A stretch of 64,000 bases of DNA. Origin: Candidatus Komeilibacteria bacterium (GTDB lineage: Bacteria > Patescibacteriota > Patescibacteriia > UBA1558 > 2-01-FULL-52-15). The first letter of the stretch is position 1; every line of letters starts with the position of its first letter. The notes under the pieces are model-generated. The model saw nothing but the letters and a program-made list of their open reading frames with translations. It was not told the origin of the DNA and did not search any database. Positions 1 through 11,217 of this stretch are shown piece by piece. Where the stretch lies: the NCBI GenBank assembly GCA_043801745.1, contig JAZDLR010000022.1, positions 1,960-65,959 of the forward strand, read 5' to 3'. A program made the position numbers and the translations under genes.

Positions 1-1475
1 TCAAAAGCTAACTTGTTAAGGATGTTGGTAACTCGGGCGGCGTGTTTCTGAGATACGCAAAAAACTATTGATTTTCCAAATAATGGAACATTTTGTTTCT
101 GCGCAATTGGATCGAAAAGGCCATTATCAATAAACGCCTTACACATGGCAATATTCGTTTCCTCATTGAAAAATTTTCGCTCATAATCACGGCCTTCAAA
201 TACTTCGTCAATAGCTTCACCCTCGTCAGTAGTTTTGTGCACGGCTAATCCTTGCTCGGAGAACAATTGAGTTGTGATCTCAGTTCGAGCATCGACAATA
301 ACCGGATTTACTAAGTAGCCATCTTTGACACCCGCAATTAGATCATAGCGAAATGTCGGCTCACCTGATTCACAGCCAAAGGTTTTATAGGTGCTTAATA
401 AAACCCTACGCTCATACTCTCGTTGTGTGTCAGCCCCTTCAGCATCAAATCCTTTTAGATAATCCTTTGGCGTGGCTGTCAGGCCAAGCTTATATCCAAT
501 AAAATATTCAAAGACCACACGGCTATTACCCCCGATCGAACGATGAGCTTCATCAGAAATAACCAACTCAAAATCTGTTGGCGAAAATTCCTTTCTATAC
601 CTATCACCCGCGAGAAACGTTTGGACGGTCGAAACCACAATACTGGCTGTTTGCCAGGAGTCACGATTATCTTTATAAATGACACAACGAAAATCATGTC
701 CCAGTTGTTGAACAAAGGCCTTGTGTGCCTGATCTTCTAATTCTAGTCGGTCAACTAAAAATAAAACGCGGCGAGCGTTTCCCGTTTTAAGAAATAATTT
801 GATCAACGCCGCCGAAACCAAAGTCTTGCCTGTGCCAGTAGCCATTTCAAAAAGGAATCTCTGATTACCTTGAGCCGCAGATTTCTGCAAACTTTTTATG
901 GCCTTTATCTGATATGGCCTTAGTTGCTTCAAATTATTATTGCGCAAAAACTCTGATCTAGTATTCTCGTCCTGATACGCTGGATCTTTGGCAAAGCTAG
1001 GCATCTGTGAAGCCACAATGTAATTCTCATCAACCTCTGTATCCGCTAACTCATCTGTATTGGGTACATAAGCCTCATATTGTGTTATAGATTCAGGAGT
1101 GGGGAAACGCGATATTACATCTGGGTTGCCACGATTTGTATCCCAAAAATAATGAATATTGCCGTTCGACAATATAATAAATCGAGCGTCGGTATTACGT
1201 GCATAATTTCTGGCTTGCTCTTTAGCAGAAAGTGGATCAACTGATTCTTTTTTTGCTTCGACAACCACTAAGGGTCGCCCATCTTTATCTAATAACAAAA
1301 AATCAATAAAACCGTGTTTCTCATTTTCAAAATCGTCACCTAATTCTGAATACTTAATACCCGGCTCTAACTGAATATTGGCTTTACCTTCTTTACTATC
1401 TTCAAAGCGCCAGCCCGACTCTTCAAGCAACTTATTTATCTTAATACGGGCTTTTGCTTCCTTTGGATTTGGCAT
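1..1475 (-). CDS. HsdR-like restriction R-subunit: N-terminal PD-(D/E)xK nuclease (HsdR_N-like) plus SF2 DEAD/DEAH helicase; C-terminus lies beyond window start (partial)
   Basis: Reverse frame from ATG at 1473-1475 reads MPNPKEAKARIKINKLLEESGWRF.. with GFIDFLLLD..VVVEAKK (nuclease-like), LRPYQIKAIKSL, FEMATGTGKT (Walker A), VISDEAHRS (motif II). No stop before position 1, so it is absent from the supplied ORF track. Hand translation only. Confidence 0.7.
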   Translation of the reverse strand, partial: MPNPKEAKARIKINKLLEESGWRFEDSKEGKANIQLEPGIKYSELGDDFENEKHGFIDFLLLDKDGRPLVVVEAKKESVDPLSAKEQARNYARNTDARFIILSNGNIHYFWDTNRGNPDVISRFPTPESITQYEAYVPNTDELADTEVDENYIVASQMPSFAKDPAYQDENTRSEFLRNNNLKQLRPYQIKAIKSLQKSAAQGNQRFLFEMATGTGKTLVSAALIKLFLKTGNARRVLFLVDRLELEDQAHKAFVQQLGHDFRCVIYKDNRDSWQTASIVVSTVQTFLAGDRYRKEFSPTDFELVISDEAHRSIGGNSRVVFEYFIGYKLGLTATPKDYLKGFDAEGADTQREYERRVLLSTYKTFGCESGEPTFRYDLIAGVKDGYLVNPVIVDARTEITTQLFSEQGLAVHKTTDEGEAIDEVFEGRDYERKFFNEETNIAMCKAFIDNGLFDPIAQKQNVPLFGKSIVFCVSQKHAARVTNILNKLAF

Positions 1476-2022: not shown

Positions 2023-2661
2023 TTAGCCAAAAAGTGAGCGTTCCTCTATAATCAAATCCCGGATAATCGCATAATAACTGTCGTCTCCCCGCTCGTATTT
2101 TCTGAAAACAGCCCAACAGACGAAATCGGCTACCTGCAGACATTTCTCGGCTTCCGGCGTGGCAATAATGACCTTGATGGCGCTTCTATGATTGCGGCTG
2201 ATCTGGCTTCTCAGATAATTCTGGAAATTTTCATTAAAAAATTTATTGGTTTCGCGGCGTGAAGCGATTAATTCTATGGGCTGGCCGCTGGTCACAATAT
2301 TCTGGGAATAAATTCTATCAAGCAGGATATTGGTCACGTAATTATACAGAACCTGTTTCTCGTCACGGAGCTTGGTATAAACCTTGGCTTTATCAAGATA
2401 AATAACCATAACCGAGCATTGATATTTGATTAACCGGCGCAAAACCCTCTTTCTGGTAATTGGCCGCTCCTTTACCGCATGCAAAACGCCCCGCTTTTTT
2501 CCTAAGATGCGGTGCAACTCAAAGCTGGTCTTCTGAATGATTTTCTCAATTGGCCGCTTGGAAGTAGGCACGAACAAAAAGGCAATAACAAAATATCTTG
2601 ATGAACCTTTTTTCTTGGAAAAACCCAAGTCGCCGCTTTCGTCCAGAAAAATATATGCCAT
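2023..2661 (-). CDS. DUF3800-like protein (conserved N-terminal DESG motif)
   Basis: ATG at 2659-2661 gives MAYIFLDESGDLGFSKKKGSSRYFVIAF.., the N-terminal DE motif typical of DUF3800. The track ORF extends to 2808, but that extension crosses a hairpin and the repeat, so the start is trimmed to the first ATG before the DESG motif. Confidence 0.6.
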   Translation of the reverse strand: MAYIFLDESGDLGFSKKKGSSRYFVIAFLFVPTSKRPIEKIIQKTSFELHRILGKKRGVLHAVKERPITRKRVLRRLIKYQCSVMVIYLDKAKVYTKLRDEKQVLYNYVTNILLDRIYSQNIVTSGQPIELIASRRETNKFFNENFQNYLRSQISRNHRSAIKVIIATPEAEKCLQVADFVCWAVFRKYERGDDSYYAIIRDLIIEERSLFG

Positions 2662-2678
2662 ATTTTTTAAATAAAATA

Positions 2679-2698
2679 AAACAGGGGGTTCCCTGTTT
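2679..2698 (-). promoter_or_regulatory. Perfect 8-bp stem-loop AAACAGGG-ggtt-CCCTGTTT, 17 nt upstream of the DUF3800 start
   Basis: Inverted repeat read directly. On the minus strand it is followed by TTTTATTTTATTT then ATG (terminator-like geometry immediately 5' of a start codon). Same motif at 4385-4407. Confidence 0.5.
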
Positions 2699-2699
2699 A

Positions 2700-3140
2700 A
2701 TTGACTTCTTTCTGCCCCAATCATCGCACATCTGAGGGGAATTTTCAAGTTTCTCGCCCGTCTCGCCGCATCGCGGACGAGCGGGCAAGTATCAAGTGCC
2801 TCCGCCAAAGGCGGATCGCCATTTATAGATTTTAAAGGTGGGCGAAAACACGAAACCCTTCGCCCAGAGGGCGATCGCCGTTAATAGATTTTAAAGGTGG
2901 GCGAAAACAAGTTCAAGGAGTAAGTGAAAGTGGGTTGATGGGGCGGATGGGAGTAGATGGGGTGGGAAAGCGACCATTAAGCTAAAGTTCTAAGCTCCCC
3001 GCCCGACTGCGAAGCGCAGCGAGGCGGGCGGGTAAGTTCGAAATCCTAAACAATATCGAAGTTCAAAATTCAAAGTTCAATCCAGCTGAGCTCGATGGGT
3101 CTTGGGACTTGATAGAGCCAGACAGCACCGAGTCTAAATA
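2700..3140. repeat. Mosaic non-coding repeat module A2 upstream of the DUF3800 gene
   Basis: See A1. Contains an internal ~57-bp tandem duplication (gatcgcc.tt.atagattttaaaggtgggcgaaaaca at 2812-2850 and 2869-2907) and a small inversion relative to A1 (actcggtgctg vs cagcaccgagt). Confidence 0.7.
2711..2751 (-). promoter_or_regulatory. Conserved promoter-proximal element, copy 2 (about 50 nt 5' of the DUF3800 start)
   Basis: Minus-strand aacttgaaaattcccctcagatgtgcgatgattggggcaga; about 85% identical to the 1517-1556 element. Confidence 0.35.
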
Positions 3141-3180
3141 AAAACGCCCCGAACAATTTGTTACGAGACGTTCTATTTAT

Positions 3181-3530
3181 TTGTTAACTGATCGCCAAAG
3201 CTTCTTTGATCTTTTGCACCACTACGTGGTCTTGCTCCAGTCGGGAAAGACGCTGTCTTACTTCCTGAAACTCACGCTGCATTTCCACTTTGGTTGGAAC
3301 CAGCTCGAAGCGTTTATATACCTCTTCAAATCGTTTATCCACACCGTCAAAGCCCTGCTTGATCATCAGGGCTAAATCGTCGTTGGTAACGTTATGATAA
3401 ATGTTTGGCTTAGGCATTGGGATAGGTTAAATTATTAAATTCTGGTAGTCACGTCCCCAATGGACGGGTCAAACCATATCCCTGTTTGAGTCATTCTCTC
3501 ACCTCAGAGAAAATTTGGCAACTGTTCATA
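3181..3530. repeat. Duplicated ~350-bp module (small-protein gene plus conserved leader), copy 1
   Basis: About 93% identical by eye to 5219-5570. The leader contains conserved hairpins TCAAAC-agggatatg-GTTTGA and CGTCC-attgg-GGACG on the minus strand. Confidence 0.8.
3184..3417 (-). CDS. Small 77-aa protein of unknown function (copy 1), predicted helical/coiled-coil C-terminus
   Basis: ATG at 3415-3417. MPKPNIYHNVTNDDLALMIKQGFDGVDKRFEEVYKRFELVPTKVEMQREFQEVRQRLSRLEQDHVVVQKIKEALAIS. The second intact copy is at 5222-5455 with 3 substitutions, which supports a real gene. Confidence 0.6.
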   Translation of the reverse strand: MPKPNIYHNVTNDDLALMIKQGFDGVDKRFEEVYKRFELVPTKVEMQREFQEVRQRLSRLEQDHVVVQKIKEALAIS

Positions 3531-3667
3531 AAACAACTGGCTCAGTGGATCGGGCGGGTTACTAATTTGATATATTTGTTCGTCTTGCTATGCTTACTTT
3601 GGCGCTTGGAGGGCTTGGCCCTATCACGGTCAATGTTTTCCAAACCGTAACCAAGTGCCACAAGAAC

Positions 3668-3689
3668 AGCCGAATGTCGGCTTTTTTTG
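3668..3689 (+). terminator. Rho-independent terminator-like hairpin AGCCG-aatgt-CGGCT followed by T7 on the plus strand
   Basis: Read directly. No annotated plus-strand gene upstream. Confidence 0.45.
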
Positions 3690-3707
3690 TTTATCATCAA
3701 ATACCAT

Positions 3708-3735
3708 TTGACAGCCGAAATAGGCATGCTAATAT
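3708..3735 (+). promoter_or_regulatory. Sigma70-like promoter TTGACA-16 nt-TAATAT (plus strand)
   Basis: TTGACA at 3708-3713, TAATAT at 3730-3735. Followed only by a 21-codon ORF (MKKTLIEVSLYRGLFYFLTHH) that includes the next terminator; this reads as sRNA-like. Confidence 0.4.
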
Positions 3736-3755
3736 ATAGTCATTACCATGAAAAA

Positions 3756-3798
3756 GACCCTTATAGAGGTTAGTCTCTATCGGGGGCTTTTTTATTTC
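3756..3798. terminator. Bidirectional intrinsic terminator (stem cccttatagag/ctctatcgggg; T-run on plus, and a T-run on minus after the NYN gene)
   Basis: Stem-loop plus CTTTTTTATTTCTT on the plus strand. The minus strand reads AAAAAAGCCCCCGATAGAG..CTCTATAAGGGTCTTTTT. It lies 73 nt downstream of the NYN stop. Confidence 0.55.
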
Positions 3799-3826
3799 TT
3801 GACACACCATTAGGTTGTGCTATCAT
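3799..3826 (+). promoter_or_regulatory. Sigma70-like promoter TTGACA-16 nt-TATCAT (extended -10 TGcTATCAT) directed antisense into the NYN gene 3' end
   Basis: TTGACA 3799-3804, TATCAT 3821-3826. Confidence 0.4.
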
Positions 3827-3870
3827 ATATATGAATACACATAGAAAGATACCTCTTAACGGTTCCGTCC

Positions 3871-4380
3871 TTAAGCGGTATTTTTCTTTTTATACTCAAG
3901 TTTATTTCGTAAATTATCTATAAAAGCGATCTTTTCTCTGGCTGTCCGCCTAAGCAAAGTCGAGCAAGTTTTGTAGTAAGGACTAAGAACCCGGGCCAAT
4001 TTATCAGCATTATATAGAAATTTGACAACTGAATAAAAGTCACCATCGCTGGTAATTAATATGACTTGATCAAAATTGCCTTCATAGAAATCAGTGATGA
4101 TCTGCAGAACCATGTCAGCATCAACATTCCCCTTATGATTTCCGTCTGGACCGATAATGACTGGCTTAAACTTCAAAATATATCCATCTTGCTGTAAGCG
4201 GGAATACAGATCCTGATTCTCCGGAATGTAACCAAGAAACAAATAGCATATTTTGACACCATATTTTTCCGCCAAATAGACCCGAAATTTTCGATAATCT
4301 AATTTCCAGCCCAGACTCTGGATTCCTAGATTTAGGTTCTGACCGTCAATATAGGCAAAATTATTAGCATTTTTTATCAT
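3871..4380 (-). CDS. NYN-domain (LabA/PIN-like) ribonuclease family protein
   Basis: ATG at 4378-4380. MIKNANNFAYIDGQNLNLG..KGNVDADMVL..ILITSDGDF, which are NYN/LabA-like acidic motifs. The track start at 4476 is a GTG whose extension crosses the hairpin. Confidence 0.65.
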   Translation of the reverse strand: MIKNANNFAYIDGQNLNLGIQSLGWKLDYRKFRVYLAEKYGVKICYLFLGYIPENQDLYSRLQQDGYILKFKPVIIGPDGNHKGNVDADMVLQIITDFYEGNFDQVILITSDGDFYSVVKFLYNADKLARVLSPYYKTCSTLLRRTAREKIAFIDNLRNKLEYKKKNTA

Positions 4381-4384
4381 AATA

Positions 4385-4407
4385 AAACAGGGCTTTCTTC
4401 CCTGTTT
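4385..4407 (-). promoter_or_regulatory. Stem-loop AAACAGGG-ctttctt-CCCTGTTT, 4 nt upstream of the NYN start
   Basis: Same stem sequence as 2679-2698. The left flank is also similar (attttttA..ATAA.A.AAACAGGG). Confidence 0.5.
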
Positions 4408-4481
4408 ATCTGTATCCGCATTATTGCACTTCTCCTCACAATTGGCAATATGTTCCAAAATGGAACCAGCTGCCACTCAAC

Positions 4482-5114
4482 TTAACTATCCGGAATTTCC
4501 GAATAGTTGCATTTTTTGCAACAGTTGAACACGCCGAACTCATCCCAGAGCCTATTATTCCTATCCCGCAGCCAATTTTGGGGATTCTGGCGGATATATT
4601 CCCGGATTTCAATTAGCGCATCTTCATGGCGAATGATGTGATCATAAAAAGACCGATGCCAAGCAAAATCAGGCAGGCCGGATTGATGGATTGATTTGGA
4701 GGAAATGGTTTTGAAGGCGCAGATGATTTTAGATAAAAGCATATGCTGGCGATAGATTTTATATCTTCTGCAGGCTGCGGTACGGACAACCCTAGGGTTG
4801 TCCGTACGAAATCTTTCGGACTGCCCGAAAAAATCATCTGCGCCCTGCCCCCGATCTTTTATAATTATTATTCCATGCACATGATTAGGCATAATAATGA
4901 AAGCATCTAAAGCAATATAGTGCCAGCGCCTAAGCCAAAGCCAGTTCCTCCTGGCAATCCAGCCGTATTTATTTAGCTGCATCCTGCCATTAATGACTTT
5001 ACCGAAGAAATTTTCATAATTAGCAGTATTGATCGTAATAAAATAATAGCCCGGCTGACTGTAATCATAGCCCTTAAGGCGATTGGCTTTTCTCTGGGGT
5101 AAATCAAGATACAT
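4482..5114 (-). CDS. tnpA: IS200/IS605-family (RAYT-like) HUH tyrosine transposase TnpA
   Basis: MYLDLPQRKANRLKGYDYSQPGYYFITINT..PNHVHGIIII (HUH motif), about 210 aa. The C-terminal 8 codons are encoded by a palindrome. Confidence 0.7.
   Translation of the reverse strand: MYLDLPQRKANRLKGYDYSQPGYYFITINTANYENFFGKVINGRMQLNKYGWIARRNWLWLRRWHYIALDAFIIMPNHVHGIIIIKDRGQGADDFFGQSERFRTDNPRVVRTAACRRYKIYRQHMLLSKIICAFKTISSKSIHQSGLPDFAWHRSFYDHIIRHEDALIEIREYIRQNPQNWLRDRNNRLWDEFGVFNCCKKCNYSEIPDS
4484..4508. repeat. Palindromic element AACTATCCGGAATTTCCGAATAGTT (copy 1 of 2; second copy at 9357-9381)
   Basis: Near-identical palindrome AACTATCCGAAATGTCCGGATAGTT at 9357-9381. Confidence 0.6.
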
Positions 5115-5215
5115 AAAAACAAGGATTCTTAGGTCCCTGCTTGCCCCGCCCCGCTCATAAGCGTTTCGCGCATTGAGCGGGCGGTGGTTTTCACCGCCAG
5201 AAAAGCGGCTTGTCT
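4484..5215 (-). mobile_element. Putative IS200/IS605-like element (tnpA only), bounded by subterminal hairpins; limits approximate
   Basis: Palindrome AACTATCCGGAATTTCCGAATAGTT at 4484-4508 overlaps the tnpA 3' end. Upstream hairpins CCCGCTCA..TGAGCGGG (5150-5181) and GGCGGTG-gtttt-CACCGCC (5180-5198). The ~0.7-kb size fits IS200. No TnpB. Confidence 0.35.
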
Positions 5216-5218
5216 AAC

Positions 5219-5570
5219 TTGTTAGCTGATCGCCAAAGCTTCTTTGATCTTTTGCACCACTACGTGGTCTTGCTCCAGGCGGGAAAGACGCTGTCTTACT
5301 TCCTGAAACTCACGCTGCATTTCCACTTTGGTTGGAACTAGCTCGAAGCGCTTGTATACCTCTCCAAATCGCTTATCCACACCGTCAAAGCCCTCCTTAA
5401 TCATAAGGGCTAAATCGTCGTTGGTAACGTTCTGATAAATGTTTGGCTTAGGCATTGGGATAGGTTTTAAATAATTAAATTTCGGCAGACGCGTCCCCAA
5501 TGGACGGATCAAACCATATCCCTGTTTGAACCATTTTCTCACTTCAAAGAAAGTTTGGCAATTGCTAAAT
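5219..5570. repeat. Duplicated ~350-bp module (small-protein gene plus conserved leader), copy 2
   Basis: See 3181-3530. Confidence 0.8.
5222..5455 (-). CDS. Small 77-aa protein of unknown function (copy 2)
   Basis: ATG at 5453-5455. MPKPNIYQNVTNDDLALMIKEGFDGVDKRFGEVYKRFELVPTKVEMQREFQEVRQRLSRLEQDHVVVQKIKEALAIS. The longer track ORF is an upstream extension. Confidence 0.6.
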   Translation of the reverse strand: MPKPNIYQNVTNDDLALMIKEGFDGVDKRFGEVYKRFELVPTKVEMQREFQEVRQRLSRLEQDHVVVQKIKEALAIS

Positions 5571-5578
5571 TACACCCC

Positions 5579-5607
5579 TTGACAAAATGCATATAATATG
5601 ATAATAT
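5579..5607 (+). promoter_or_regulatory. Consensus sigma70 promoter TTGACA-17 nt-TAATAT driving the G+C-rich protease gene
   Basis: TTGACA 5579-5584, TAATAT 5602-5607. The 5'UTR has two hairpins: GCCCAA-tt-TTGGGC, and CCCCC-ata-GGGGG which overlaps the SD AGGGGGG. Confidence 0.55.
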
Positions 5608-5676
5608 ACTATATTACCAGGTTGTTCATTTTTTTGCCCAATTTTGGGCTTTAACCCCCATAGGGGGGTAACAGTC

Positions 5677-6447
5677 GTGAAGCAGATCTGGTCGCGTTTC
5701 TTGGATGTTCTCCTGCTGGTTAGCACGAGCCTTTTTACCTGGTGGGCCATTAGGGCCATCATTACCCCCATGCTGCAGCACAACACACACCTGGCCCACT
5801 GGAACCCCAGTTTCCTGGCAACCATTGTGGTGGTGTCGGTGTTGGGCCATGAACTGGGCCATGCCTTTTTCATGGAACGCTATGGCCTGAGGACGCGGAT
5901 CTTTCTGCTCGTCTTCATTGGCGGCGCGGTCATCGATCCCAAGAAGATGGCCAAACTGTCGTGGAGCAAGCAGAGCAACATCCTGCTCGCAGGAGTTTGT
6001 GTTAACTTCCTGCTGGGTGTGATTGGTCTTCTGCTTGGACTGTTCGGCATCATCACCATCAGCACGGCCAGCATGTTCGCTCTGGTCAACGGAAGCATGA
6101 TCATCTGGAACTTGATACCCGTTGGACTGTTCGACGGAGGTCGCCTCGCCAAACTGCTCTTCAACAGCATTCCGGAACACGATGACCTCCGTGTCGCCCG
6201 GTACCTGAGTCGCGCTGTGCTGCCGGCTTTCATTGGGCTGTTCGCCTGCGCCGTGATCGACATGATCATCCCTATGACACTCATGGTCTGGGGATTTGGC
6301 TATCAGGCCACTCACGATGACCCCGAGGGCAGCTACAACCCTCTGGCCATGACCAGGGAGGACGTGAGCCGGCTGAGCTGGATCTACCTCTTACTGGTCT
6401 ACGGCGGTGCAGCCCTGCTGCTGCTCTTCGAACTGGTCAGGAAGTAA
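5677..6447 (+). CDS. Peptidase M50 / site-2-protease-family membrane zinc metalloprotease (minimal form)
   Basis: GTG start 8 nt after the SD AGGGGGG. HELGHAF (HExxH) in a TM helix and NLIPVGLFDGGR (the LDG motif of S2P). Multi-TM. G+C visibly higher than flanks. Confidence 0.65.
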   Translation: MKQIWSRFLDVLLLVSTSLFTWWAIRAIITPMLQHNTHLAHWNPSFLATIVVVSVLGHELGHAFFMERYGLRTRIFLLVFIGGAVIDPKKMAKLSWSKQSNILLAGVCVNFLLGVIGLLLGLFGIITISTASMFALVNGSMIIWNLIPVGLFDGGRLAKLLFNSIPEHDDLRVARYLSRAVLPAFIGLFACAVIDMIIPMTLMVWGFGYQATHDDPEGSYNPLAMTREDVSRLSWIYLLLVYGGAALLLLFELVRK

Positions 6448-6457
6448 GGCAACTTAG

Positions 6458-6510
6458 GAACCCGCGCTAGTATCATCCTCTGGATGAGAACGCGCGGGTT
6501 CATTTTTTTT
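6458..6510 (+). terminator. Long intrinsic terminator: GAACCCGCGC-tagta-TCATCC-tct-GGATGA-gaac-GCGCGGGTTC then T8
   Basis: 10-bp outer stem, 6-bp inner stem, T-run. Same architecture at 11148-11200. Confidence 0.7.
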
Positions 6511-6533
6511 ATTCAACAACGACTTGCCGACAT

Positions 6534-6863: not shown

Positions 6864-9311
6864 TTACAGCTTGGGATAAACGGTGAAACGTTTAGTAGTT
6901 CTCTGAAAACAACTATTAATAAAAGATACTGACAGATTGTAGGAGGAATTTTTGACATCATATTTGTGCGTGGAAGTAAAATTATTACCACTATCTAAGG
7001 CCGGATGAGTATCTACCTGCCCCCAGGCAACGATAATAGGATCAAAGTAACGCGGCCCGGTACAGCCCGGGTAAGTACCCCAATAATCCATATGGCCACT
7101 AACTGTATAGGTTGCTAGACCGTCATTAGTCTCCGTGACTGTAATACTAGGATAACGGTCACCGGTTGGAGTTGTGGGCTCGGGCGTAACTACCGGATTC
7201 ACCGGTGTCACAGGCGGTGTAACCGGAGGCGTAACAACCGGCTCTGGTTCGGGTACGATTATGGTCGGCGGAGTAACTACTGGTACATCTACTTGCGGGA
7301 TTACGGGAATAGTAATATCGGGTACAGGATTAAGCACACCACCCGGAACATCAACACTGGGATTATTGGATCCGGTGTTATTATCGAAAATATAAGACAC
7401 TGGTGGGTGTTCTTGGATAAACTTCACTCTACCGGGTATCGGAGATGCTAAAGAATTATTATTCTCATTGCTTTCCCTAATCTGTGACTGCGGCGCATCG
7501 CCCGTGCCGTCACCCACGTCAACCGTGGCCTTAAATTTGGTGGCATATTTATAGGAATCATTATTACCGCAGAAAACGTCTTTCTGCGTATAGCGCTTAT
7601 TGCGTCCCAGCGTGCCCATAGTTTCATAACATCCGCCCAAACGCTCACCGAAAATGTTATACCAATCATAAGCCACCCGACTGTTTCTACTCGTGCCTTC
7701 CGTACCTTTATTAATAATAGTTACTTCCGGATGCAGATCGCTGCCGCGGAAATTCATGCCTTCAATTTTCAGATCCGGCGCCGGTAGGTCAATCGTTTTC
7801 GAATTATTACTTTCATTAGATTCGTGAACCAAATTTGAAGCCAGAGGTTCATTGGGATCCTCTGACATATCTAAAGTAACGCGCAGTTTGACTGCTTGTT
7901 CAGCAAATTCTGCCGGACAGGCACGGGCCACGGCTGTAGATGTACGACCCACCCCAAGAGATGCGACTCCAGCTCCGGAACCACAAGTATTGATCACACG
8001 ATTGTTGCTGTCCAGCCATTCAGAAACCAAGTTAAACCTCGGCGCTGTATCAGCTCTACCAGAGTTAATGAAATTAACATTACCAATGCGTTCGCCTCGT
8101 TCATTACGGGCCAGAGAAATTGACGTTATCCGCAAATCTGACAAAGGAATGGTCACTGTCTTAGAATTATTACTTTCATTAGACTCGTGAACTAGATTTG
8201 AAGCCAAAGGTTCATTGGGATCCTCTGACATATCTAAAGTAACGCGCAGTTTAACTGCTTGTTCGGCAAATTCAGGCGGACAGGCACGGGCCACGGCTGT
8301 AGATGTACGAGCTACGCCCAGCGGCTCCACACCAGCGCCAGAACCGCAAGTATTGATCACCCGGCCGTTACTTTCTAGCCATTCTGAAACCAAATTAAAT
8401 CTTGGTGAGGTAGAAAATCTGCCGGCATTAATGAAATTAACATTACCAATGCGTTCGCCTCGTTCATTTCGGGCCAGAACAATTGACGTTATCCGCAAAT
8501 CCGGCAAGGGAATACTGACTGTTTTCGAATTATTACTTTCATTGGACTCATGAACCAGATTTGAAGACTCCGGTTCATCCGGGTTCTCAGACCTGTCCAC
8601 AATCACCCGTAACTTAACAGCTTGTTCAGCGAATTCAGCCGGACAGGCACGGGCTACAGCAGTTGAAATCTCACCAAAACCCAAAGATTCTACTGCCGCG
8701 CCAGAACCGCAAGTATTGATCACCCGGCCGTTACTATCTAGCCATTCTGAAACCAGGTTAAAAAATGAAGGCGTAGAACCACGACCGGTGTTTACTATAA
8801 TTACATTACCAATGCGTTCACCCTGACTATTGCGAGCTAAAGTAAGTGAAGATATTTTCAAATCCGGCAAAGGAATGGTCACTGTCTTGGAATTATTACT
8901 TTCATTGGACTCGTGAACCAGATTAGTAGCCAAAGGATCATCGCTCTCATCTTTATCTATCGTCACGCGCAGTTTAACTGCCCGTTCAGCAAATTCAGGC
9001 GGACAGGCCCGAGCCACAGCTGTAGTTACCCTGGCAATACCCAAGGGTTCAACCGCGGCCCCAGAATCACAAGTATTGATCACCTGGCCGTTACTATCTA
9101 ACCACTCCGACATTAAATTAAACCTCGGACCAGTGGCGGCTCGACCGGCATTAATGATTACGACATTACCGATGCGTTCAGCTTGTGAGTTACGGGCAAT
9201 AGTAATGCTAAGAACCTGCAAATCTGGCAAATTTTCTGCTGCCGCCGGCGTCAGATTAGGCACTAATAAAAAAAATACCCAGAGCAGCGCGATTAGAAGT
9301 TTATATTTCAT
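6864..9311 (-). CDS. Secreted cell-surface protein: signal peptide, 5 tandem CARDB-like repeats (~121 aa each, ..NLVHESNESNNSKT..), Pro/Thr/Val-rich linker, C-terminal Cys-containing domain
   Basis: MKYKLLIALLWVFFLLVPNLTPAAA signal peptide. Repeats LPDL.V.SI.IARN..ERIGNV..IN.GR..T.PRFNL.SEWLDSNG.VINTCGSGA.VE.LG...T.TAVARACP.EFAE.AVKLRV. A PVVTPPVTPPVTP linker. Confidence 0.6.
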   Translation of the reverse strand: MKYKLLIALLWVFFLLVPNLTPAAAENLPDLQVLSITIARNSQAERIGNVVIINAGRAATGPRFNLMSEWLDSNGQVINTCDSGAAVEPLGIARVTTAVARACPPEFAERAVKLRVTIDKDESDDPLATNLVHESNESNNSKTVTIPLPDLKISSLTLARNSQGERIGNVIIVNTGRGSTPSFFNLVSEWLDSNGRVINTCGSGAAVESLGFGEISTAVARACPAEFAEQAVKLRVIVDRSENPDEPESSNLVHESNESNNSKTVSIPLPDLRITSIVLARNERGERIGNVNFINAGRFSTSPRFNLVSEWLESNGRVINTCGSGAGVEPLGVARTSTAVARACPPEFAEQAVKLRVTLDMSEDPNEPLASNLVHESNESNNSKTVTIPLSDLRITSISLARNERGERIGNVNFINSGRADTAPRFNLVSEWLDSNNRVINTCGSGAGVASLGVGRTSTAVARACPAEFAEQAVKLRVTLDMSEDPNEPLASNLVHESNESNNSKTIDLPAPDLKIEGMNFRGSDLHPEVTIINKGTEGTSRNSRVAYDWYNIFGERLGGCYETMGTLGRNKRYTQKDVFCGNNDSYKYATKFKATVDVGDGTGDAPQSQIRESNENNNSLASPIPGRVKFIQEHPPVSYIFDNNTGSNNPSVDVPGGVLNPVPDITIPVIPQVDVPVVTPPTIIVPEPEPVVTPPVTPPVTPVNPVVTPEPTTPTGDRYPSITVTETNDGLATYTVSGHMDYWGTYPGCTGPRYFDPIIVAWGQVDTHPALDSGNNFTSTHKYDVKNSSYNLSVSFINSCFQRTTKRFTVYPKL
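7630..9230. repeat. Intragenic tandem DNA repeat, period about 363 bp, about 4.5 copies, roughly 90% inter-copy identity
   Basis: Near-identical antisense ORFs 7852-8190 and 8215-8553 lie 363 bp apart. Repeated ESNESNNSKT-encoding units. Confidence 0.8.
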
Positions 9312-11147: not shown

Positions 11148-11200
11148 GAACCCGCACTAGTATCATCCATCGGATGAGAACGTGCGGGTTCTTCTTTTTT
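11148..11200 (+). terminator. Long intrinsic terminator GAACCCGCAC-tagta-TCATCC-atc-GGATGA-gaac-GTGCGGGTTC then TTCTTTTTT
   Basis: Same design as 6458-6510, with a compensatory G:C to A:T change in the outer stem. Confidence 0.7.
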
Positions 11201-11217
11201 ACAAAAAAATATTACCC

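Follow-up and report, generated by a model that had tools for sequence, protein, structure and literature searches.

RAYTs are single-copy genes with adjoining palindromes, and in REP/RAYT systems the gene is flanked by REPs, short palindromes that are scattered over the genome in many copies. The IS200 tnpA leader and the ROSE and fourU RNA thermometers are structured 5' untranslated regions (UTRs) in which the start region for translation is paired. Insertion with long target duplication, leaving direct repeats of 46-423 bp, has been documented around restriction-modification genes by Furuta, Abe and Kobayashi (2010; PMC2853133). The locus considered here has points of likeness to each of these. 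It lies within 64,000 nucleotides of contig JAZDLR010000022.1 (this whole stretch, as analysed, is called the window below), which comes from a metagenome-assembled genome (MAG) of Candidatus Komeilibacteria, a lineage within the Parcubacteria group of the candidate phyla radiation (CPR). Two direct repeats in this stretch bracket an NYN-domain nuclease gene and a RAYT-like transposase gene, and each repeat carries a gene for a 77-aa protein. In our judgment the repeats are probably two paralogous copies of an autonomous, monocistronic small-gene cassette, residing in a hypervariable, modular restriction/nuclease island of the Komeilibacteria.

Copy A occupies 3181..3524 (minus strand; repeats D2/D4, blastn and synteny with the related locus L007) and copy B 5219..5564 (minus strand; repeat scan, alignment and blastn), and each consists of a promoter, a 5' UTR and the open reading frame (ORF) for the 77-aa protein. 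The two align over 346 columns at 92.2% identity, with 27 differing positions and a single 2-nt indel. An initial annotation, made from the sequence alone, had described same-orientation repeats of about 350 bp around the NYN and tnpA genes; the repeats are indeed there, but its outer coordinates, 3530 and 5570, overshoot the homology by about 6 nt. The homology ends sharply, on one side 3 nt before the -35 box is reached and on the other 3 nt after the stop codon, and beyond these points the flanks are not significantly alike (local alignment score of 22; shuffled sequences, 18 +/- 2). Since any co-duplicated flank would still be alignable at 20% neutral divergence, the repeated unit is exactly promoter, UTR and ORF; the possibility that the duplication once reached beyond the -35 box was rejected, the flank alignment being at shuffle level. 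No third copy of the cassette was found in the window at either the DNA or the protein level, by blastn and tblastn. A terminator-like hairpin with a U-run follows copy A (3143..3172, minus strand; read directly from the sequence, having been missed by the consensus scan); it lies outside the repeat and has no equivalent after copy B.

The two ORFs, A at 3184..3417 (MPKPNIYHNV...KIKEALAIS, identical to NCBI V1846_04600) and B at 5222..5455 (identical to V1846_04615), both on the minus strand, differ in just the three residues that had been reported earlier (H8Q, Q21E and E31G); eight more differences are synonymous. A longer, 106-aa reading of ORF B from a GTG at 5542 is not conserved in copy A. 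The comparison of substitution rates that the initial annotation had proposed gives dS 0.188, dN 0.017 and omega 0.088 by Nei-Gojobori counts (Fisher p 2e-4), and this purifying selection agrees with its presumption that both genes are intact and functional. The noncoding part behaves in the same way. The stretch running from the -35 box up to the ATG has 109 columns; the 50 positions classed as constrained (the -35 hexamer, the TGn-10 element, the 5' motif and the stems P1 and P2 described below) include 1 difference, vs. 14 (25%) at the remaining 56 positions (p 6e-4). The overall "93% identity" is thus a mean of neutral sites that have diverged by about 20% and constrained sites that are nearly identical. 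Because the neutral sites differ by about 0.2 substitutions per site, the copies are old, or else derive from diverged lineages, and selection maintains both; such a selection-shaped pattern of differences cannot come from an assembly artefact. We regard the duplication, its sharp limits and the purifying selection as established.

By sequence, the region upstream of each ORF is best read as a sigma-70-type extended -10 promoter followed by a 5' UTR of 65-75 nt. The predicted promoter of copy A (3493..3521, minus strand; consensus scan) consists of TTGCCA, a 17-nt spacer and TGa-GAGAAT, and that of copy B (5533..5561, minus strand; consensus scan and A/B comparison) of TTGCCA, 17 nt and TGa-GAAAAT. 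The closest homologues, at loci L002, L007 and L009, keep the layout, with TTGTCT, TTGTCA or TTGCAA, 17 nt and TGn-GAAG[A/C]T, and in all three an invariant AAACAGGGATATGGTT follows 5-8 nt after the -10 element, despite proteins that are only 64-66% identical. Distant relatives (L011, L017 and L018) have a short leader in which (C)AAAC(A/G)GGG is kept 5-7 nt after a TAAAAT/TATAAT box, and the position of this motif just past a -10-like box supports the promoter assignment and points to a conserved motif at the 5' end of the mRNA. An alternative promoter, GTGAGA ... TATGGT, lying over the first hairpin of the initial annotation, was rejected, as its spacer varies from 18 to 21 nt among the homologues vs. 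the fixed TTGnnA-17-TGnGAnnAT. The conserved leader of about 100 nt proposed in that annotation therefore stands in part: its elements are common to the homologues, the leader being kept in L002, L007 and L009, but about 35 nt of it is promoter (TTGCCA-17-TGnGAnAAT) and not leader.

The 5' UTR of copy A (3418..3487, minus strand) begins with the invariant AAACAGGGAUAUGGUU and has a minimum free energy (MFE) fold with a closing stem, P1 (3472-3482 with 3419-3428), and an inner stem, P2 (3452-3466); in the UTR of copy B (5456..5527, minus strand) the corresponding MFE stems are P1, 5512-5522 with 5457-5466, and P2, 5492-5506. When the leaders are aligned by MAFFT, P2 falls out of register and P1 is displaced by one column from group to group; because the columns are unfit for pair counting, independent folds were used. 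All six leaders folded in this way give one architecture, P1 plus P2 with an AU-rich bulge between them, an unpaired stretch (UUUAAUAAUU) on the 3' side (z-scores -1.3, -2.6, -3.4, -4.6, -3.7 and -2.8). P1 pairs GGGAUAUGGUU (GGGAUA(U)GGUU) with AACCUAUCCC in the window or with AGCUAUAUCCC in L002, L007 and L009. The stem stops 0-3 nt short of the AUG and spans positions -1 to -11, and its 3' arm changes from AACC to AGCU with pairing kept. P2 is formed at one place from four unrelated stem sequences: CGUCC/GGACG, GUCGGC/GCCGAU, UCUCGGCC/GGUCGAGG and ACUUGUUCC/GGAACAAGU. This turnover of sequence with the stem retained is, among the features compared, the strongest evidence for what appears to be a selected structure, and the differences between copies A and B avoid the stems of the UTR. 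P2 corresponds to the second hairpin (CGTCC/GGACG) of the initial annotation, which is present in both copies and is replaced in the homologues by stems of different sequence. The first, TCAAAC/GTTTGA, is found as sequence in both copies; as a conserved structure it fails, being reduced to 3-4 pairs in L002, L007 and L009 without compensation, and it and P1 are mutually exclusive. The comparison of homologues leads us to accept both the promoter layout and the UTR architecture as conserved.

Searches for the leader elsewhere gave little. In Rfam only a tRNA passes in the window, and a permissive search of 2600-5700 gives nothing in the leaders. The leader pattern (AAACAGGGATATGGTT, 30-60 nt, TATCCC) has two hits in JGI metagenome contigs, neither adjoining a homologous gene, and the 16-mer AAACAGGGATATGGTT alone has 18 hits in viral contigs, none with the protein. 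A conserved upstream ORF from the invariant AUG in GAUAUGG was rejected, since neither length nor frame is constant: the reading has 2 codons or 13, or else enters the gene out of frame.

The setting of this fold is a genome with few Shine-Dalgarno sites. A Shine-Dalgarno-like motif occurs at 3 of the 56 crude gene starts in the window, and one of the three (9834) belongs to a 60%-GC, foreign-looking gene. The anti-Shine-Dalgarno motif has been lost in part of the Parcubacteria (PMC9297842), and initiation in this genome presumably depends on an open, AU-rich start region. Through P1 the start of the transcript would be paired with the 10-11 nt that immediately precede the AUG, which might moderate initiation or protect the 5' end, with the AU-rich bulge serving as a possible ribosome landing site. 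Post-transcriptional control by the leader is on this account plausible.

The 77-aa protein seems, from its sequence, to belong to a large coiled-coil family that has no curated name. Either protein is carried by one contig only, of 131 kb (NCBI identity look-up), and close relatives are rare, consisting of P0003 and P0004 (64-66% identity) and the genes in L007 and L009. The wider family comprises 883 proteins at E <= 0.001 in a profile search of 1.84 billion cluster representatives, each member standing for a cluster at 50% identity. These proteins are 50-150 aa long, with an N-terminal motif, T-x-E-D-L-A-x-M-[IV]-K-x-G-F-D-G-V-D-K-R-F, a C-terminal motif, [IV]-K-x-A-L-A-[IL], and a variable number of DKRFEQV heptads. 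The AlphaFold prediction suggested in the initial annotation was run (AlphaFold2) and gives two helices, 12-39 and 43-73, at a pLDDT of 84.8, with no sequence match and no fold match in PDB. No Pfam, NCBIfam, PADLOC or PHROG family is reached at threshold by the 77-aa protein (the two scores against Pfam DUF5798, 17.1 and 14.1 bits, are below the cut-off of 27), although some relatives match PHROGs of unknown function. Pfam and NCBIfam scans reveal no HTH, RHH or other DNA-binding domain, and the protein was not found in viral contigs by a protein-based scan nor in plasmids and phages by tblastn. It would presumably work as a coiled-coil oligomer, neither an enzyme nor a DNA-binding protein. 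Some longer members of the family (L008 5743-6201; L010 191-541; P0006 and P0008) have the N-terminal motif DLAxM[IV]KxGFD twice or more per chain, which suggests that it behaves as a duplicable module.

The surroundings of the cassette vary greatly. A partial gene for the R subunit of a type I restriction enzyme (3..1475, minus strand; Pfam ResIII 7.5e-38 and HSDR_N; PADLOC REase_I 1.2e-51) lies 1.7 kb from the cassette and marks the region as a restriction/defence island, and the left 12 kb of the window is a GC mosaic of 36-62%. Homologues of the small gene are located near a Dcm-type methylase, an LlaMI-like enzyme, an HTH gene and DpnI in L002, 1.8 kb from an endonuclease and Dcm in L007, and near an N6_N4 methylase and DpnII in L011; other family members sit beside housekeeping genes such as those for RNase J and DHO dehydrogenase. 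The initial annotation had proposed looking for genomic partners of the homologues, and none emerged: the neighbours differ, and no partner gene is conserved across seven independent contexts.

By blastn, L002, L004, L007, L009 and L053 represent the same variable locus of related genomes. The first four share a Ferric_reduct flank while everything around the cassette differs, and an insertion reaching as far as the small gene's -35 box distinguishes L007 from L009. L053 shares with the window the block that includes the NYN gene (window 3742-4410, L053 806-1482), a block with an M50 peptidase gene and its terminal hairpin (window 5579-6500, L053 9982-10898) and a tRNA at 96% identity; tblastn did not find the small gene in it. 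Copy A is in a syntenic position, adjoining two mini-units (see below) just as the single small gene does in L007, where the mini-units are followed by one small gene. The -35 box of copy B is 15-17 nt from the divergent promoter of the M50 block, the homology of the window to L053 beginning at 5579. In the related genomes, then, these blocks recur in different orders and the cassette is either single or missing; the island has therefore been assembled from discrete blocks that meet at the edges of promoters and terminators. That neighbouring blocks have been shuffled as modules among related genomes is, on these alignments, a conclusion that we consider secure.

Several other features of the island were recorded. 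A DUF3800 gene (2023..2661, minus strand; Pfam DUF3800 1.3e-14) is bracketed by a second, mosaic pair of direct repeats, 1514-1895 and 2709-3109, which are GC-rich, non-coding and hairpin-rich; within them a 46-nt unit is present three times, and a 100-nt block is 90% identical without gaps. A 44-nt hairpin (GAACCCGCGC...GCGCGGGTTC) with a T-run occurs at 6458-6511 and 11148-11201, at L007 4166-4214 and at L053 10849-10903; it ends unrelated genes (the M50 peptidase, an esterase and a gene of 60% GC), is 87-96% identical across three genomes, and looks like a terminator module that blocks share at their borders. An 815-aa minus-strand ORF, 6864-9311, contains at 7795-9180 four 360-nt repeats in tandem (60-85% identity), and its product looks like a repetitive surface-type protein. 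The records of L007 and L009 are titled as MAGs of "uncultured Gammaproteobacteria"; they share DNA blocks of 69-96% identity with the window, L002, L004 or L053 and have a GC content of 43-44%, the same as the Komeilibacteria window, and the label looks doubtful.

Between the copies are two genes, both on the minus strand. The NYN-domain nuclease gene (3871..4380; 169 aa from the ATG at 4380) matches Pfam NYN at 8.6e-13 and PADLOC NYN at 3.6e-8. The RAYT-like Y1 (HUH) transposase gene (4482..5114) is present in a single copy. Its product matches NCBIfam REP_Tyr_transpos at 3.4e-13, or 49.7 bits, below the family cut-off of 80, and Pfam Y1_Tnp at 19.8 bits (cut-off 23); the HUH and catalytic Tyr motifs are conserved in alignment. 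The best non-self match among 5.8 billion clusters is no more than 53% identical, and no NYN neighbour was found beside the RAYT homologues in L048-L052. The RAYT-like ORF contains a perfect 28-nt palindrome, 4780-4807, in the variable stretch that separates its HUH motif from its Tyr motif; two distant homologues have a palindrome of 28-30 nt at the same place (L048 4265-4294; L049 about 4262-4289), of related sequence (GTACGGACAACCC / GTAGGGACAGGTC).

Two tandem promoter-hairpin-terminator mini-units (3708..3890, plus strand; promoter scan; conserved in L007 and L053) lie between the NYN gene and copy A and are transcribed away from the latter. Each of the two (3708-3795 and 3799-3890) has TTGACA, a 16-nt spacer, a -10 box (preceded in the second by TGn) and about 55 nt leading to a strong hairpin with a T-run (z -4.5). 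They recur at L007 5575-5775 (minus strand) and L053 760-965, with hexamers and hairpins kept in the three genomes, one compensatory change from U-A to C-G, and 80% identity to L007, above that of the coding sequence for the 77-aa protein. They come after NYN in the window and in L053; in L007 the gene before them is Bro-N/RhuM-like. Small RNAs and bidirectional terminators are both possible identities for them; as small RNAs pairing with the leader they were rejected, the duplex energies being no better than those of shuffles.

Palindromes also adjoin the RAYT-like gene, at 5117-5142, 5146-5184 and 4385-4407. Near-identical hairpins stand 2-17 nt before the ATG of three minus-strand genes (2679-2698, 4385-4407 and 5117-5142): AAACAGGG..CCCTGTTT and a U-rich sequence precede DUF3800 and NYN, AAGCAGGGA..TCCTTGTTT precedes the RAYT-like gene, and all three share an 8-mer with the start of the small-gene UTR. 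AAACAGGG itself occurs 8 times in the window vs. 2.2 expected. Two CCGCCC...GGGCGG palindromes, 2999-3031 and 5146-5184, are the only ones in the 64 kb (0.09 expected); each is shortly downstream of one copy of the small gene, the second being 30 nt upstream of the start of the RAYT-like gene, and they may be REP-like elements. A dispersed family of REPs or palindromes was not found in the window.

If the repeats are paralogous cassettes, as we favour, the cassette would be one of the island's blocks that happens to be present twice, with copy A at the shared position and copy B as the extra one, between the RAYT-like gene and the M50 block. The NYN and RAYT-like genes would be separate modules lying between the copies by chance, and not the cargo of a transposon. 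A by-product of the arrangement would be that the 1.7-kb NYN-RAYT segment could be deleted or amplified by RecA-type recombination between the 345-bp direct repeats. Certain considerations weigh against this account or its parts. The window is a metagenome assembly, the transcription start sites are predicted, and the order of duplication events is one that we infer. Both limits of the repeat coincide exactly with the functional cassette, so that the cassette itself could be the unit of movement. The changes in P1 are all one-sided (G-C to G-U, U-A to U-G) in about four independent lineages, and its 5' arm is invariant. The energy for opening the start region, -12..+5, is 7.1-7.7 kcal/mol vs. 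a window median of 4.9, ranking 13-15 of 55; occlusion of the start is thus moderate, above average and not exceptional.

The alternative that we take most seriously, while thinking it unlikely, is a single insertion of the NYN and RAYT-like segment at the small gene, either with long target duplication or by a Campbell-type single crossover of a circle bearing a diverged allele. The geometry is suggestive: 345-bp direct repeats flank a 1.7-kb insert, sizes that fall within the criteria of PMC2853133 (repeats >30 bp, insert <20 kb), the NYN part is 36% GC and much below its surroundings, and the island is rich in the kind of restriction genes around which such duplications have been documented. 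Those criteria also call for no other mobile element to be involved, however, and here a transposase homologue lies inside the insert. The insert itself, searched with Pfam, NCBIfam and PADLOC, holds no restriction or modification genes, only NYN and the RAYT-like gene. The copies differ by 19-25% at neutral sites, vs. 94-100% identity in the reported target duplications, so the insertion would have to be very old or the donor allele diverged. Moreover, the segment between the copies is not one unit, NYN and the mini-units occurring in L053 without the RAYT-like gene and the RAYT homologues without an NYN neighbour; and the mini-units adjoin both copy A and the single small gene of L007, so that this junction predates any such insertion. 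The related sites that were compared, L053 without the small gene and L007 with one copy by its mini-units, are both too distant to serve as an empty site.

The initial annotation had itself likened the arrangement to a composite element or to a duplicated regulator or antitoxin-like protein, and the evidence bears out neither. For the cassettes to be the ends of a 2.4-kb unit moved by the Y1 transposase, with the leader hairpins as recognition sites, is very improbable. A Y1/HUH homologue does lie between the repeats, the leader DNA is able to form hairpins, those of the AAACAGGG type cluster in this region (2679-5527 has 6 of the window's 8 hits), and similar hairpins flank the RAYT-like gene at 5117-5142 and 4385-4407. 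The repeats, however, hold promoter, UTR and 77-aa ORF and no transposase gene; terminal inverted repeats are absent from 3181/3524 and from 5219/5564, the two outer flanks of the unit have nothing in common that could be a target-site duplication, and the unit does not occur a second time in the window. The low identity of all RAYT relatives, the lack of NYN beside them, the absence of dispersed REPs from the 64 kb and the travelling of NYN with a different block in L053 all tell against a mobile unit, as does the finding of the same leader in L002, L007 and L009 with no Y1 gene nearby; the leader motif and stem pattern gave only two unrelated hits in metagenome contigs. That each copy should encode an antitoxin or transcriptional regulator controlling one neighbouring nuclease we consider quite improbable. 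Its smallness, its own promoter and its proximity to nucleases here (NYN, DUF3800) and to restriction-modification genes in L002, L007 and L011 are what such a role would lead one to expect. Against this, no partner is conserved across the seven contexts; family members also occur beside RNase J and DHO dehydrogenase genes; the small gene is monocistronic and not part of a two-gene operon; and its product, a predicted plain two-helix coiled coil, has neither a DNA-binding domain nor a match in PADLOC, Pfam or NCBIfam. Least probable of all is that one locus was written twice, or two strains joined, during assembly. The source is a MAG, but the copies differ at 27 positions and an indel, these differences are selection-shaped (omega 0.09, stems spared), the neutral divergence of about 20% is far beyond strain-level variation, and the DNA between and outside the copies is unique.

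With the paralogous-cassette interpretation retained, the locus offers a worked example of how the restriction/nuclease islands of tiny CPR genomes are built from blocks joined at promoters and terminators. It also offers two leads, a widespread, unnamed family of small coiled-coil proteins and, from a lineage with hardly any Shine-Dalgarno sites, a short 5' UTR fold that shows stem covariation; the protein family and the UTR fold are undescribed and their scope is modest, and neither lead alters current understanding unless a function is found. A bolder proposal, which we consider improbable, is that the cassette acts as a portable "homology handle" of CPR defence islands, a promoter-leader-ORF module at the borders of exchangeable blocks, its 16-nt motif and P1/P2 fold constituting a new regulatory RNA. 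If that were true, a block between direct copies would loop out as a circle, amplify, or swap between related genomes, and the invariant 16-nt 5' motif with P1 and P2 would set the expression of the module in Shine-Dalgarno-free translation.

Comparison with the known systems can be made part by part. The 77-aa protein has in common with DUF5798, DUF7310, FlaC_arch and XhlA that it is short, highly charged and all-helical, with heptad periodicity; the similarity is weak, all matches being under the Pfam gathering scores, and the N-terminal and C-terminal motifs of the 77-aa family are not part of those families. The leader resembles the stem-loop of the IS200 tnpA leader and the ROSE/fourU thermometers in that a helix covers the nucleotides before the AUG, with a second hairpin upstream, and the helix is likewise AU-rich, with wobble pairs and a bulge. 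Unlike them, it hides no Shine-Dalgarno sequence and has no Rfam match, its occlusion of the start is moderate, and an opening signal is without support. The RAYT-like gene shares with RAYT and IS200-type Y1 transposases the HUH and catalytic Tyr motifs, the single copy and the adjoining palindromes; it differs from RAYT systems in having no dispersed REP family in the 64 kb and a score under the NCBIfam family cut-off, and the 345-bp repeats, unlike REPs, encode a protein, occur twice only, and exist in other genomes without any Y1 gene. As in the system of PMC2853133, long direct repeats (tens to about 420 bp there) bracket a few acquired genes in a restriction-rich region, no transposase or integrase is responsible, and the repeats permit later deletion or amplification. 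The bracketed genes here are NYN and a RAYT-like gene instead of a restriction-modification pair, the DNA between the repeats is not one unit, and the repeats are a complete functional cassette, 8% diverged overall and about 20% at neutral sites.

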